Assembly (NCBI GenBank): GCA_030018415.1
Contig: JASEGC010000001.1
Location: forward strand, 55,261-119,260
Reading direction: 5' to 3'
Length of the DNA stretch: 64,000 nucleotides
From: Candidatus Aenigmatarchaeota archaeon
GTDB taxonomy: Archaea; Aenigmatarchaeota; Aenigmatarchaeia; CG10238-14
Below are positions 3,584 to 55,852 of the stretch, one piece after another (position 1 is the stretch's first letter; every line of letters starts with the position of its first letter). The position numbers and the translations under genes were made by a program. The notes under the pieces were generated by a model. It was not told where the DNA came from. It searched no databases and saw only the letters and a program-made list of their open reading frames with translations.

Positions 3584-3832
3584 TTGCCGTTCGACTGGAA
3601 CCTTGTCAGCATCAGCTTAACAGTAGTTTTTATAGCAACATTCGTTTTGTTCTACATATTCGACAACCTTGCAAAAATATGGAGTTTATGCGAAAAAAAT
3701 AAAAGTTTTAAAGTATGTACATTAGGTTCATTACCAGTCATCGTACTCATGCTTTTGTTGATAGCTGGCGGGTTGATAATGGTAATAAACATAACTGCAT
3801 ACATAATGATATCTGGAAGTACACGTGTTTAG
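3584..3832 (+). CDS. Small two-TM membrane protein
   Basis: TTG start after GGAGG, two hydrophobic helices, operonic position. Confidence 0.65.
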   Translation: MPFDWNLVSISLTVVFIATFVLFYIFDNLAKIWSLCEKNKSFKVCTLGSLPVIVLMLLLIAGGLIMVINITAYIMISGSTRV

Positions 3833-4250
3833 TATGAAAGATGTGGATCCAAAGAGGTTCATCGAAGTTTGTAAAGAAGAATTGAAAAGGGTTGAAAAGA
3901 TTAAACCACCCAGTTGGGCAAAATTTGCAAAAACTGGAATGAGTAGAAAATTTCCTCCCAAACAAGAAGATTGGTGGTATACGAGAGCAGCATCAATACT
4001 GAGAAGAATTTATCTTGATGGTCCAGTCGGTGTTCAAAGATTAAGGACATATTATGGCGGAAGAAAAGATAGAGGACATAAACCAGAAAGATTTAAGAAA
4101 TCTGGAGGTAGTATAATTAGAAAATGCCTACAACAATTGGAATCAGCCGAACTGATACAAAAAAGTCAAAACACGAAAAAGAAAGGTAGAATAATCAGTG
4201 AAAAGGGAAAAAAATTTATAAGTAAAATATTATCCGAAGTGAAAAAATGA
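3825..4250 (+). CDS. rps19e: 30S ribosomal protein S19e
   Basis: PPSWAKFAKTG...WWYTRAASILRRIY...GPVGV.RLR..YGG motifs. Confidence 0.97.
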   Translation: MFSMKDVDPKRFIEVCKEELKRVEKIKPPSWAKFAKTGMSRKFPPKQEDWWYTRAASILRRIYLDGPVGVQRLRTYYGGRKDRGHKPERFKKSGGSIIRKCLQQLESAELIQKSQNTKKKGRIISEKGKKFISKILSEVKK

Positions 4251-43559: not shown

Positions 43560-43641
43560 GCCCCGATAGCATAGTGGTAATGCATCCGCCTCGTAAACCC
43601 AAGAAAGCGGAAGATCGAGGGTTCAAATCCCTCTCGGGGCT
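43560..43641 (+). tRNA. tRNA-Thr(CGT) with 10-nt intron at 37/38 (43596-43605)
   Basis: GCCCCGA/TCGGGGC acceptor, TCCGC-CTCGTA^A-GCGGA anticodon arm, GAGGG-TTCAAAT-CCCTC. Confidence 0.88.
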
Positions 43642-49190: not shown

Positions 49191-49451
49191 GGCTGGTAAG
49201 TTGGGAAGACGGCTTCGCTTTTCTTTAAAAGGAAAGGTGAGGAAGTTCCATCCACCATGAGGATGCTGAAAAGCGGACTGAGAAGTTCGTGAACGATATC
49301 AGAAACGATACCACCCTATCTCAATGGGATGATGCAAAGACGTCGGATAGAAGTGGATGAAACGGATTGATCACTCCGATGAGGTGCAAAGTTAAACTGC
49401 TCAGACGAATGCCGTCAAAACAGAAGATGGGCTATTCTCAGCATACCAGCC
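49191..49451 (+). ncRNA. rnpB: RNase P RNA (compact, type-M-like)
   Basis: P1 ends GGCTGGTA/TACCAGCC, CR-I GAGGAAGTTCCATCC, AGAAAC and TGAAACGG elements, CR-V AACAGAAGATGGGCTAT. Confidence 0.88.
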
Positions 49452-52536: not shown

Positions 52537-52956
52537 ATGAAAAAGTTTGAGTTTGTCGATATTACTACAGCAGATGTTGCTTTTAAAGCTTATGGCAAAA
52601 ACTTGAACGAACTTTTTGCCAATTCTGCTCTAGCAATGTTTGAAGTTATGATAAACACAAAGCAAGTAAAACCAAGGATTATAAGGGGACTGAAAGTAAA
52701 AGGAAATGATTTACAATCTTTAATGTTCAGTTGGCTCAATGAGCTATTGGTTTTTGTTGATTCAGAGAATCTGGCATTTTCTAGTTTTAAAACAGAAGTT
52801 GATGAGAAAAATTTTACTTTGAACGCAGTTTGTAAAGGAGAGAAGATCGATCCTAAAAAACATGAGATAAGAACTGCCGTGAAAGCATGCACATACCATC
52901 AAATGAAAATTGAGAAAAATAAAATTTGGAAAATTCAGGTTATTTTAGATATTTAA
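52537..52956 (+). CDS. Archease (RtcB cofactor)
   Basis: TADV.F.AYG...ELF.N.A, WLNEL, VKACTYH, C-terminal DI. Confidence 0.92.
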   Translation: MKKFEFVDITTADVAFKAYGKNLNELFANSALAMFEVMINTKQVKPRIIRGLKVKGNDLQSLMFSWLNELLVFVDSENLAFSSFKTEVDEKNFTLNAVCKGEKIDPKKHEIRTAVKACTYHQMKIEKNKIWKIQVILDI

Positions 52957-52993
52957 GCAAGATTTCTAAAAAAATAATATTTTAGTGAAAAAA

Positions 52994-53110
52994 ATGAAAA
53001 AATGCCCAAACTGTGGAGCAAGTTTAAAGTTTATTCTCGATGAATGGGTTTGTTTAGAATGCGAGTACCATAGTGAAAAACCGAAAGAAGTGGAAAAATC
53101 TTTCAGATGA
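52994..53110 (+). CDS. 38-aa zinc-ribbon protein
   Basis: MKKCPNCGASLKFILDEWVCLECEYHSEKPKEVEKSFR*. Confidence 0.6.
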   Translation: MKKCPNCGASLKFILDEWVCLECEYHSEKPKEVEKSFR

Positions 53111-53135: not shown

Positions 53136-54623
53136 TTAACCCTTTACAACTCCTAAAGGAACTAATCTAGCCACGCGCTTACTTATTCCAGCTTCTTCGG
53201 TTATCCTTGCTACTTCATCTATGTCCTTGTAAGCCTCTGGTGCTTCTTCTGCCATAACTCTCCAACTAGCAGCCCTTGATAAAATTCCTTTCTGGACAAG
53301 CCTTCTTGCTACTTCTTCCCCCCTCAAACCCCTTAACATTTTAGCTCTTGAGGCAACTCTTCCTGCCCCATGTGCGGTTGAATAGAAAGTTTCTTTTGCT
53401 GTATCTGATGCAACTAAAACGTAACTTGCACTACCCATACTCCCTGGAATAATCACTGGCTGCGCTGTATTTCTATAATCCTTTGGTATTTCTGGATGTC
53501 CTGCAGGAAAGGCTCTAGTGGCCCCTTTTCTATGAACATAAACCTTGACTTTTTTCCCATCGATCTCATGTTCTTCAATTTTTCCAATGTTGTGAGCGAC
53601 GTCATAAACAACTTCAAGACCCATGTCCTCCATTTTCATCCCTAAAACTTTTACAAAACTTTCTCTTACCCAATGATTTATGATTTGTCTGTTGGTCCAA
53701 GCATAGTTAGCTGCGCAAGCCATCGCAGAAAAATAATCTTCACACTCTTTTGTGCCAGAGGAGGCATAAACTAGTTCTCTATCTGGGAGTTTCCTTATTT
53801 CGTCTCTAAACCTTGATTCCAAAATTCTTAGGTAATCTGTACAAACTTGATGTCCAAAACCTCTTGAGCCTGTATGGATCATAACTGCTATTTGTCCTAT
53901 CTTTTCAATACCGAAAACTTTGGCAACTTCTGGGAGGAATATTTTATCTACAAGTTGAACCTCAAGAAAATGATTACCTGCCCCTAAAGTTCCAAGCTGA
54001 GGAGCACCTCTTTTCTTAGCTTCATTAGAAACTTTTTGTGGGTTTGCACCTTTCATGCAACCATTTTCTTCCAGATGATCTAAATCTTTTTCAGTGCCGT
54101 AACCTTTCTCAACAGCCCATCTAGCCCCATTTACTAAAACTTCATCCAACTCAGAAAAACTTAACCTTATTTTGCCTATTTCTCCCACTCCAGAAGGTAC
54201 ATTCCTAAAGATTGATTCTAACAATTCTCTTAATTTTGGTCTTATTTGATCTACAGTTAAATTCGTTCTAAGTAAGCGGACACCACAGTTGATGTCAATT
54301 TCGGGGATTTATACAGTCCAATCCGATGCCACCAGGTGAGAGTCCGCCACTGTTGTAATCCAGCGCTGCAACCCCTCCGATAGGAAATCCTTGGTCGCTT
54401 TCTAGCTGTAACCGAAATGCATATCGGGGAGTGCAATGCTATGTTTGTAGATGCCAGGCAGAAAAGCTACGTTTGCAGCTTGTTCAATTGCTTCTTCTTC
54501 AACTTCTCTAAGAAGTCTATCAGATAGGAATAATAAGACTGGTACTTTCATTCCTGGTTTTGCTTCTTTAGGCAGTTCCCACCTACAATTCGCAATCTTC
54601 TTTAATCTTTCCTTTAAGTTCAT
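53136..54623 (-). CDS. rtcB: tRNA-splicing ligase RtcB, interrupted by two BHB introns (54391-54407 and 54299-54320); 482 aa after splicing
   Basis: Spliced frame reads PDMHFGY^GFPIGGVAA...SPGGIG^FDINCGVR and continues to GNHF, HTGSRG, HRKGAT, HGAGR, EEAP.AYK, VVKG. Confidence 0.93.
54299..54320 (-). other. BHB-type mRNA intron 2 in rtcB (22 nt)
   Basis: Central helix TCGG/CCGA, bulges AT^T and AA^T, intron stem GGA/TCC, exon stem GGTGGCA/TGACATC. Confidence 0.9.
54391..54407 (-). other. BHB-type mRNA intron 1 in rtcB (17 nt)
   Basis: Central helix GGTT/GACC, bulges AC^A and AA^G, intron stem GCT/AGC; contains an in-frame TAG. Confidence 0.88.
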
Positions 54624-54775: not shown

Positions 54776-55852
54776 ATGAGCGTTAACCCAGAAGACTATT
54801 TACTCCTCATGTTTTCGATGAAGGGTGTAGGTAAGAGAGTCGATTTTGCTCATGTAAAAGAGAAAATAACTCGCGATGTATCAAAATTATCAGATGATGA
54901 AATAAGAAAGATTCTTTCGAGTTTAACCCAAAAGAACCATCTTGAAGAAGTGAAAGGAACGTTTGGGATAACAAAAGGAGGTAAGGAATTCTTTGCTCAA
55001 AGAATCAAAGAAATAGAAGAAGATTTGAGAAAAGTTAACGAGCCTTGGGTTATCGTTTATAAGTCAAAGCAGTATTATCCTGTTGTTGCCGATACTGTGT
55101 TAGAATTCTGCAAGAATAGATATACTGGGTTCTACTGTTTATTCACAGAACAAAGATTTTTTAGAAGGGATTTCAGAGGAAAGAAGATTGTATTGAACTC
55201 TGTAAAAGATTTACTCTTTTTCATCAACATCCATTACATAGATGTCATACCCTGCGTGCATCGCATTGGAATGGAAAGACCAGACTGGCTTGTGGTTGAC
55301 ATTGATCCTGGACCGAAAGTTGATTTCGAGCAGACAAAACAAGTTGCAAAAATAACTTATAAGATATTTGACGAATTAAAATTAAACCCCATGACGAAGT
55401 TCTCTGGCTCTCGCGGCTTCCAGGTTTGGTCATTGATCGGGGGGTTCGAGATACCTGAAAAATATCAACCTTTAGCCTTGAGAGGCGAGAGCAAAAGAGA
55501 GAGGAATTACTTTTCTTTATTTGCTGACTTTGTAAGAATAATTCAAAAAGAAGTGGATAAGGAAGTTCCGGGATTAACAACTTCTGAAACCTTGGGAAAA
55601 AAAGAAAGAGAAGACAAAATTTTACTCGATTCAGCGAGCATGAAGCCGATGGGTCTAGTACGCTCACCTTATTCAGTACATTCAAAGACTGGCCTTGTTT
55701 CTCTACCTCTGTCTATAAGTGAACTGGAAAAATTTGAAGTAAAAGACGCTACAACTGAAGAAACGATCGAAAGATACAAAAAAAGAGGAAACGAATTTGT
55801 CTTAAAAGAATCTAATCCGTCAAGACTTCTAAATCTATTCAAATTTTCTTGA
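54776..55852 (+). CDS. wHTH fused to LigD-PolDom-like primase-polymerase (AEP)
   Basis: N-terminal wHTH (GITKGG wing), PDWLVVDIDPG, KFSGSRGFQ, ILLD, RSPYS...TGLVS.P. Confidence 0.8.
   Translation: MSVNPEDYLLLMFSMKGVGKRVDFAHVKEKITRDVSKLSDDEIRKILSSLTQKNHLEEVKGTFGITKGGKEFFAQRIKEIEEDLRKVNEPWVIVYKSKQYYPVVADTVLEFCKNRYTGFYCLFTEQRFFRRDFRGKKIVLNSVKDLLFFINIHYIDVIPCVHRIGMERPDWLVVDIDPGPKVDFEQTKQVAKITYKIFDELKLNPMTKFSGSRGFQVWSLIGGFEIPEKYQPLALRGESKRERNYFSLFADFVRIIQKEVDKEVPGLTTSETLGKKEREDKILLDSASMKPMGLVRSPYSVHSKTGLVSLPLSISELEKFEVKDATTEETIERYKKRGNEFVLKESNPSRLLNLFKFS

Follow-up and report, generated by a model that had tools for sequence, protein, structure and literature searches.

How does a cell produce the RNA ligase RtcB from a gene whose reading frame is broken twice within its first part? 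This question is raised by the rtcB gene of a Candidatus Aenigmatarchaeota archaeon, which lies on the minus strand of the 64-kb stretch of DNA that was analysed as a whole (the window). The two interruptions are short, and each can be folded into the bulge-helix-bulge (BHB) structure that marks archaeal introns. We conclude that they are very probably BHB introns in the rtcB pre-mRNA, to be spliced by the splicing endonuclease EndA together with RtcB itself. This explanation is favoured because of the anatomy of the gene, the conservation and covariation of the inserts, the purifying selection that acts on rtcB and the inventory of processing genes in the genome, from which we infer cleavage, ligation and feedback.

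Anatomy of the interrupted rtcB gene

The open reading frame that starts at the rtcB initiation codon (54623-54402) terminates at a TAG located within the first insert. When both inserts are excised in silico by their window coordinates (Table 1), a single open frame of 482 codons is obtained. Exon 1 corresponds to positions 1-25 of the Pfam RtcB profile and exon 3 to positions 48-426 (E = 1.7e-148), whereas exon 2 alone yields no Pfam match because its 23 codons are too few. A whole-genome search with the same profile (PF01139) gave a full-length match to this gene (profile positions 1-426, E = 5.1e-156). An earlier interpretation made from the letters of this DNA without database searches (the sequence-only reading) had proposed the two inserts with their positions, sequences and stop codons as well as the 482-residue product, and all of these were borne out by the minus-strand sequence and the in silico removal. 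The inserts were also considered as inteins, and this was rejected: they are 17 and 22 nt long, one carries a stop codon and the other shifts the frame.

The interruptions fall in conserved motifs of the enzyme. Exon 1 aligns with residues 5-70 of the solved structure of Pyrococcus horikoshii RtcB, such that its last residue corresponds to Tyr70. Exon 3 aligns with residues 95-481, and the DINCG motif, one stretch of 21 residues and HGAGR are identical in the two proteins. In P. horikoshii numbering, Asp65 is specified five codons upstream of the end of exon 1, Asp95 aligns with the first whole codon of exon 3, and Cys98 follows three residues later. The sequence-only reading had assigned catalytic or metal-binding roles to these three residues, and their placement in the interrupted motifs is upheld by the alignment. 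For Asp65 we presume such a role. An extract of a review lists Asp95 and Cys98 among the Mn ligands of RtcB and does not give the role of Asp65 (PMC10630183; this and the other papers with PMC numbers are represented here by extracts).

Both inserts can be described in terms of one RNA fold. In a canonical BHB motif, a 4-bp helix (H) has a 3-nt bulge at either end, one on each strand, and the EndA cleavage site in a bulge follows its second base. This arrangement is present at both inserts. In motif 1, H is GGTT/GACC and includes one G-U pair, and the bulges are AC^A and AA^G (with ^ marking the cut). In motif 2, H is TCGG/CCGA and the bulges are AT^T and AA^T. Each H is flanked by 3 bp of the inner helix h′, which lies within the intron, and 2 bp of the outer helix h, which is formed between the exons; in relatives h varies from 0 to 5 bp, so that many of their motifs are relaxed as well. 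Because their outer helices are short, both window motifs are BHBs of the relaxed kind. For motif 2, the unconstrained minimum free energy fold is the full hBHBh′ structure, in which the outer helix grows to seven pairs with one base unpaired.

Cutting after the second bulge base gives functional junctions for both inserts in silico, and it is this agreement between fold and protein that is difficult to obtain by chance. A BHB finder that used geometry alone returned 339 candidates in the rtcB region, and the best protein-restoring pair of cuts among them corresponds exactly to the two proposed inserts. The junction of each window insert was fixed independently by the protein alignment, and geometry as good as that of the insert at this junction is shown by only 4 of 16,755 position pairs in a 296-nt region. 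The equivalent values over 30 inserts, most of them from relatives (see below), are 0.0001-0.007 per insert, although the genomes that carry the inserts are related and the values therefore cannot be multiplied. The BHB folds of the sequence-only reading, and its cut rule that restores both the frame and the conserved motifs, thus withstood structure search and folding.

Inserts in related genomes and in other genes

To place the two inserts in a wider context, we searched 118 genomes of the same order, of which 106 have rtcB. The N-terminal rtcB DNA was inspected in the 26 genomes that gave split or stop-bearing matches, and about nine further genomes, with split matches that have very long open frames, were left out of the insert count. 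The inspection yielded 28 short inserts at six positions in 21 of the 106 rtcB-bearing genomes, including the window genome; contig breaks and large in-frame insertions account for the other disrupted matches. When named species genomes were scanned, the closest relatives proved to be labelled Candidatus Aenigmatarchaeota, and two more inserts were revealed in one Hadesarchaea genome, one of them at a seventh position. The total is 30 inserts of 13-36 nt, at seven positions that all lie within approximately 30 codons.

Inserts are found after PDGH and after GY (nine genomes each), after GYG (two genomes), inside SPGG^IG (one), inside GIG^FD (five), inside FDI^NCG (three), and two bases 3′ of this last position (the Hadesarchaeon). 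The site after GY is that of window insert 1, which is used in eight other genomes, with seven distinct sequences among the nine in all. Window insert 2 is at the GIG^FD site, used in four other genomes. In 30 of 30 inserts the conserved motif is rebuilt by the BHB rule alone. The 5′ bulge is ATA in 20 inserts, and the 3′ bulge is AAT or AAG in 21.

Conservation of the fold was assessed by counting pairs at positions defined relative to the protein-defined cuts, with no alignment fitting. Helix H and the first three pairs of h′ are standard in 179 of 194 cells, as opposed to 68-104 of 194 (35-54%) when the partner strand is slid by one or two bases. Furthermore, four sites show double changes in H and h′ that compensate each other. 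The third pair of H at the GY^G site is U-A in the window and C-G in the six other distinct sequences; the third pair of h′ at the PDGH^S site appears as C-G, U-G, U-A and A-U; and an exon-exon pair at the GIG^FD site is either A-U or G-C. The structure has been kept through compensatory change, a pattern that the sequence-only reading had proposed to look for, and inserts at the same and neighbouring sites are present in 21 further genomes.

The inserts of the Hadesarchaea-labelled genome (locus L103) were derived manually before they were scored. The stretch 630-681 contains an insert of 29 nt at the GY^G site, with the H and bulges seen in the Aenigmatarchaeota-labelled genomes, and in the stretch 738-791 a 31-nt insert interrupts DI^NCG. 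For the first insert of genome G037, the BHB was resolved with one mismatch allowed in H. One disruption near PDGHSGY, in the rtcB gene of G102 (L056), gave no solution in the BHB search; the same gene has one resolved 18-nt insert and two large insertions.

The interrupted genes are otherwise intact. After the BHB cuts, all frames are open to the end of the gene or of the locus, with 482 open codons in the window, 498 in G037, 496 in the Hadesarchaeon and 935 in G028 (intein included). The rtcB genes of insert-bearing genomes are under strong purifying selection: dN/dS between them is 0.036-0.134 in seven of ten pairs, and dS is saturated in the other three. Most genomes of the order have an uninterrupted rtcB, and these include both genomes of the same genus (G001 and G002), which suggests that the inserts are dispensable over short evolutionary time.

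Two types of RtcB are present in the order, a PDMHFGY type with 55-80% identity to the window protein and a PDGHSGY type with approximately 43-49%. The types do not match genome families; for example, G014 belongs to the family of the window genome and has the PDGHSGY type. Since insert sites follow RtcB type, transfer of rtcB is hinted at.

Inserts of the same kind were observed in other essential genes. In the window genome, the gene for initiation factor aIF2-gamma is interrupted in its P-loop by an insert whose helix H, TCGG/CCGA, is identical to that of rtcB insert 2. The exon that follows the insert gives matches to eIF2_C and, beginning at profile position 12, to GTP_EFTU. Among 29 aIF2-gamma loci listed for relatives, 24 are intact and five are interrupted at the P-loop site. 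Four of the interrupted genes (those of the three resolved relatives G022, G024 and G032 among them) resolve to the same H, with inserts of 20-33 nt and inner helices that differ, and no BHB solution was obtained for the disruption in G029. The aIF2-gamma insert is also absent from G001 and G002, so that the window genome appears unusually rich in inserts for its genus. A third interrupted gene encodes the alpha subunit of pyruvate/2-oxoacid:ferredoxin oxidoreductase (POR alpha). Removal of its insert produces YPITPQ^THIVEEL and retention leads to a TGA; the match of its downstream exon to POR_N begins at profile position 20.

An order-wide search for the Cbf5 family flagged nine cbf5 genes with a single in-frame stop. 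Seven were inspected (L062-L067 and L069, from G096, G088, G082, G027, G100, G097 and G095), with those of G098 and G099 left out, and all seven carry a 12-15-nt insert in the Asp codon of the catalytic GTL-D-P motif. Their fold combines a long helix between the two exons, a bulge of 3 nt and a short capped helix, with almost no inner helix. In L062, worked out by hand, the cut rule excises 12 nt and brings the first letter of the Asp codon back next to the second, which is the boundary given for the crenarchaeal cbf5 intron (PMC2738675). The cbf5 gene of the window genome (G000) is intact and reads through (ILDP). Cutting after the second bulge base restores the frames of aIF2-gamma, POR alpha and cbf5 as well as that of rtcB.

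Large in-frame insertions are present in other genomes of the order at RtcB profile positions of approximately 28 and 49. In RtcB of G028 (L034) and G017 (L040), Intein_splicing and LAGLIDADG domains were verified in insertions at the RtcB Cys. The mini-introns and the inteins interrupt the same two RtcB motifs, and rtcB of G028 combines two mini-introns and one intein within approximately 30 codons.

A census was attempted with four scans of the 1.19-Mb window genome for BHB motifs whose excision fuses open frames. The numbers of candidates were 3,889 with loose geometry (3,661-4,045 with a shifted 3′ cut), 123 with strict geometry (112-141 in controls), 135 with the bulge signature (134 with decoy bulges) and 59 with a GC-rich helix (51-65 in controls). 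The scans cannot count the intron family because they are swamped by neighbouring genes on the same strand and are blind to short exons. Insert 2 of rtcB was recovered blind by the bulge-signature and GC-rich-helix scans; it and the aIF2-gamma and POR alpha inserts were selected from the scan output on the basis of their junction peptides, and this choice is subjective. For another scan candidate, on contig C13 (19995-19952), the junction peptide looked wrong.

The rtcB inserts thus most likely belong to a wider family of mini-introns, 12-36 nt in length, that occupy conserved and often catalytic motifs of essential genes. Judged by these occurrences, the mini-introns are most likely tolerated or selfish elements. 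Conserved exon sequence would provide one strand of the recognition helix, and the elements may persist where protein constraint freezes this exon half.

Splicing machinery and the probable dependence of RtcB on itself

The assembly of the window genome comprises 16 contigs, is 89% complete and contains one match to rtcB. Archease, the activation factor of RtcB, is encoded in the window next to rtcB. EndA is represented by a 180-aa open reading frame (ORF) with both the N- and the C-terminal Pfam domain, elsewhere on the rtcB contig, and its catalytic domain has one match in the whole genome. Neither an ATP-dependent RNA ligase (RNA_ligase family, no match above the cut-off) nor a 2′-5′ RNA ligase was found in the genome.

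The closest solved structure to this EndA is the alpha4 enzyme of M. jannaschii (1a79). The catalytic domain has a six-residue insertion between its YERG and EH(S/T) segments. An alpha4 EndA with an extra ‘L3’ loop is described in an extract on DPANN lineages that have many disrupted tRNA genes (PMC5829648). The six-residue insertion was considered as a candidate for such a loop.

The tRNA genes suggest that short introns are processed in this organism. The genome gave 32 matches to the Rfam tRNA model, 28 of which were tested with ARAGORN, whose intron option missed a tRNA-Thr in the window. Ten of the 28 were recognised unaltered and 18 were not. Removal of one BHB-defined insert of 14-63 nt made 12 of these 18 recognisable, three with doubtful anticodon calls, and the other six over-long matches, including one in the window, were not resolved by removal of a single insert. 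Several of the tRNA introns are only 14-21 nt long, have inner helices of 2-4 bp and share the geometry of the rtcB inserts. Since these introns and the rtcB inserts fall into one class, substrates of this kind must already be handled by the cell.

Table 1. Locations of rtcB and its parts, of processing genes and inserts elsewhere in the genome, and of other features in the window. Coordinates are those of the window unless a contig is named.
Feature	Location	Strand	Description
rtcB	54623-53136	-	two interruptions, 17 nt and 22 nt
rtcB exon 1	54408..54623	-	72 codons; ATG at 54623; 3′ end is Tyr of PDMHFGY
BHB mini-intron 1 (putative)	54391..54407	-	17 nt; in-frame TAG; from third 5′-bulge base to second 3′-bulge base
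Helix H of motif 1, 5′ strand	54410..54413	-	exonic GGTT; partner 54396-54393, intronic GACC
rtcB exon 2	54321..54390	-	70 nt; 23 codons and first base of Phe codon
BHB mini-intron 2 (putative)	54299..54320	-	22 nt; frame-shifting; retention leads to TGA
Helix H of motif 2, 5′ strand	54323..54326	-	exonic TCGG; partner 54304-54301, intronic CCGA
rtcB exon 3	53136..54298	-	two bases of Phe codon, 386 codons and stop
Archease gene	52537..52956	+	convergent with rtcB; Pfam Archease, full length, E = 3.4e-45
EndA gene	contig C8 near 371.8 kb, region 371837-372115 (L041 1474-2016)	-	
aIF2-gamma insert	contig C11 79256-79285 (L150 357-386)	+	30 nt; in-frame TGA; in His codon of P-loop GH^VDHGKS
POR alpha insert	contig C11 36124-36154 (L151 225-255)	+	31 nt; H = CCGC/GCGG; 5-bp inner helix
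Zinc-ribbon ORF	52985-53110	+	41 aa; between archease and rtcB
Primase-polymerase gene	54776-55852	+	LigD Prim-Pol; divergent from rtcB
tRNA	43560-43641	+	82 nt; Rfam model, 64.8 bits; not found by ARAGORN; probably intron-bearing
RNase P RNA	49196-49446	+	archaeal; 109 bits

These components suggest the following course of events. EndA would cleave four bonds of the rtcB pre-mRNA, each directly 3′ of the middle base of a 3-nt bulge, and the products would have 2′,3′-cyclic phosphate and 5′-OH ends. RtcB, together with the adjacently encoded archease, would ligate exon 2 to exon 1 on one side and to exon 3 on the other, and the joined mRNA would then encode the 482-aa ligase.

The expected consequence is that new RtcB can be made solely where RtcB already exists, because the searches gave a single rtcB and detected no further RNA ligase. 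The same pathway appears to be needed for many tRNAs and for at least two more essential mRNAs, so the cell would have to inherit RtcB protein in order to make more of it. The loop would then be autocatalytic and be passed on through the cytoplasm. The sequence-only reading had stated that the ligase must splice its own mRNA and that RtcB output depends on RtcB; the single rtcB, the EndA and archease genes and the lack of another detected ligase argue well for this inference.

Alternatives and relation to known systems

Several observations weigh against the assignment of the inserts as spliced BHB introns. The outer helix h is reduced to 2 bp at both inserts of the window and to 0 bp at PDGH^S in relatives, several central helices contain one mismatch and that of G068 contains two, and the alpha4 type of EndA is described as strict for canonical motifs. 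The genomes of the same genus have an uninterrupted rtcB. None of the four genome-wide scans beat its controls, and an assembly that is 89% complete leaves room for a second intact rtcB or for another ligase.

The alternative that survives best accepts the same splicing chemistry and gives it a purpose, namely that the rtcB introns are an evolved control, either a positive-feedback switch or a ligation checkpoint tied to spare EndA and RtcB capacity. A single-copy rtcB with no other ligase found is consistent with this possibility, as is the frequency of interruption, which at 21 of 106 genomes is far above chance, frequently with two inserts in one gene. Also, the sites flank metal-binding residues, and unspliced products would consequently be inactive. 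However, inserts are also present in aIF2-gamma, POR alpha and cbf5, for which there is no obvious need for a loop, and they are absent from relatives of the same genus. The seven variable sites, with inteins at the same spots in other genomes, form a pattern that is typical of selfish elements, and it is not evident what an essential enzyme would gain in homeostasis from feedback that is purely positive. We saw no evidence of a regulator that evolved specifically for rtcB, and purpose-built control is rated lower, as an unlikely alternative, because of the inserts in unrelated genes, the variable sites, the insert-free relatives and the overlap with inteins.

A more speculative proposal, to which we give somewhat less credence than to control, envisages the mini-introns as a mobile family propagated at the level of RNA. 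EndA and RtcB could re-insert excised introns into matching exon sequence, with fixation in DNA thereafter. In such a scheme rtcB might be a favoured host, since its own product handles RNA, and the RtcB loop might constitute a heritable all-or-none state of the cell. It is similarly doubtful that, as this scheme would have it, the elements survive solely in codons too conserved for the exon half of the helix to drift. Two unrelated genes, rtcB and aIF2-gamma, do share the TCGG/CCGA helix between exon and intron.

In other systems, recoding can be promoted by short inserts with structure, and the rtcB inserts might accordingly remain in the mRNA and be passed by the ribosome through programmed bypassing or frameshifting. 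We regard this as very improbable. Bypassing does not account for the fact that the exact BHB register alone restores the protein in 30 of 30 inserts, nor does it account for the covariation of the helices. It also leaves unexplained how one mechanism would serve both stop-bearing inserts of 18, 24, 30 or 36 nt that are in frame and inserts of 17, 22 or 31 nt that shift the frame.

A decaying rtcB pseudogene, whose function would come from an unassembled gene copy or from a host, is even less probable. DPANN-type organisms are often host-dependent, the relatives are labelled as a DPANN phylum, and the incomplete assembly gives such a copy a place to hide. Yet the two BHB inserts are the sole lesions and all other rtcB codons are open, dN/dS between insert-bearing genes is 0.04-0.13, and the 21-residue stretch and HGAGR are identical to those of P. 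horikoshii RtcB. Moreover, many tRNA genes of the same genome need splicing. An intact copy elsewhere, which the sequence-only reading had named as a threat to its claim together with decay of this one, did not appear in the assembly, where rtcB has its one match. It is scarcely conceivable that the inserts are assembly or sequencing errors, another threat that it had named, given that structured inserts with different loop sequences occupy the same codons in 21 further genomes, and that the seven of these genomes found among the named records come under several different isolate naming schemes, which rules out an assembly error peculiar to this contig.

Spliced BHB introns in mRNA would not be without precedent. 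A BHB intron was reportedly described by Watanabe in 2002 in the crenarchaeal cbf5 pre-mRNA. According to the extracts, cbf5 was the sole mRNA BHB intron reported before a case in the 5′ untranslated region (UTR) of HVO_1309 (PMC7714728), and splicing had been confirmed for no gene other than cbf5 (PMC2738675, Yokobori 2009). Both statements agree with the sequence-only reading, in which crenarchaeal cbf5 served as the established example. Like the crenarchaeal cbf5 intron, the rtcB inserts are short BHB elements at a catalytic codon in the gene for an RNA-processing enzyme, with lengths that are either in frame or frame-shifting and with patchy gain and loss (PMC2738675). In cbf5 of the order studied here, the 12-15-nt insert even lies in the same codon as the crenarchaeal intron. 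In contrast to crenarchaeal cbf5, the host gene rtcB encodes the ligase that would finish the reaction, and there can be two introns per gene. The lineages also differ (Aenigmatarchaeota-labelled genomes and one Hadesarchaeon), and their EndA is alpha4-like rather than hetero-oligomeric. The HVO_1309 transcript of Haloferax volcanii is likewise an mRNA substrate of an archaeal splicing endonuclease outside tRNA and rRNA, but its intron is in the 5′ UTR, is not required for an open frame and is a single case in one species (PMC7714728).

Archaeal RtcB inteins at the metal-binding Cys resemble the mini-introns in that they target the same two conserved catalytic motifs. Unlike the mini-introns, they are spliced out of the protein, range in length from 130 to more than 500 residues and carry a homing endonuclease. 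In the splicing of XBP1 and HAC1 mRNAs, IRE1 cuts two stem-loops, and in metazoa RtcB ligates the ends; the XBP1 intron is 26 nt long. These introns are similar to the rtcB inserts in being very short, in lying in a coding region, in changing the frame and in producing cyclic-phosphate and hydroxyl ends that RtcB joins. They differ in that IRE1 is used instead of EndA and a BHB, splicing is regulated by stress, and the product is a transcription factor.

The mini-introns in tRNA genes of DPANN archaea have the same motif, the same size range (14-21 nt in this genome) and presumably the same enzymes (PMC5829648). Unlike these tRNA introns, the rtcB inserts would be removed from an mRNA, and each cut must consequently also keep the reading frame. 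Finally, 12-bp putative introns occur in protein genes of the rudivirus SIRV1 (Peng 2004, via PMC2738675); their splicing was not shown, according to the extract, and they are possibly translated. Like the rtcB inserts, they are very short and lie in archaeal protein-coding sequence, and they are approximately the size of the cbf5 inserts seen here.

No earlier report of BHB introns in rtcB, aIF2-gamma or POR genes was found in the literature searched, which comprised few subscription journals and no supplements. The mechanism that we propose is ordinary. What is unexpected is which gene hosts the inserts, how many sites they use, that other essential genes have them too and that RtcB would depend on itself. 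Archaeal mRNA splicing, as represented in the extracts, has so far comprised one confirmed case in a coding region (cbf5, 2002) and one in a 5′ UTR (PMC7714728, PMC2738675). In approximately 20 genomes from a single order, and in one from a second phylum, the mechanism now appears to interrupt its own finishing ligase, in addition to an initiation factor, a central metabolic enzyme and cbf5. Because the predicted rtcB junctions are exact, the claim can be tested.

If the inserts are spliced, essential genes of these genomes are wrongly annotated as broken by gene callers. The preference for catalytic codons that mini-introns have in common with inteins would offer a direct route to asking how BHB introns arise. 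Furthermore, production of RtcB in these archaea would be self-dependent, which would constitute a rare kind of non-genetic inheritance requirement.

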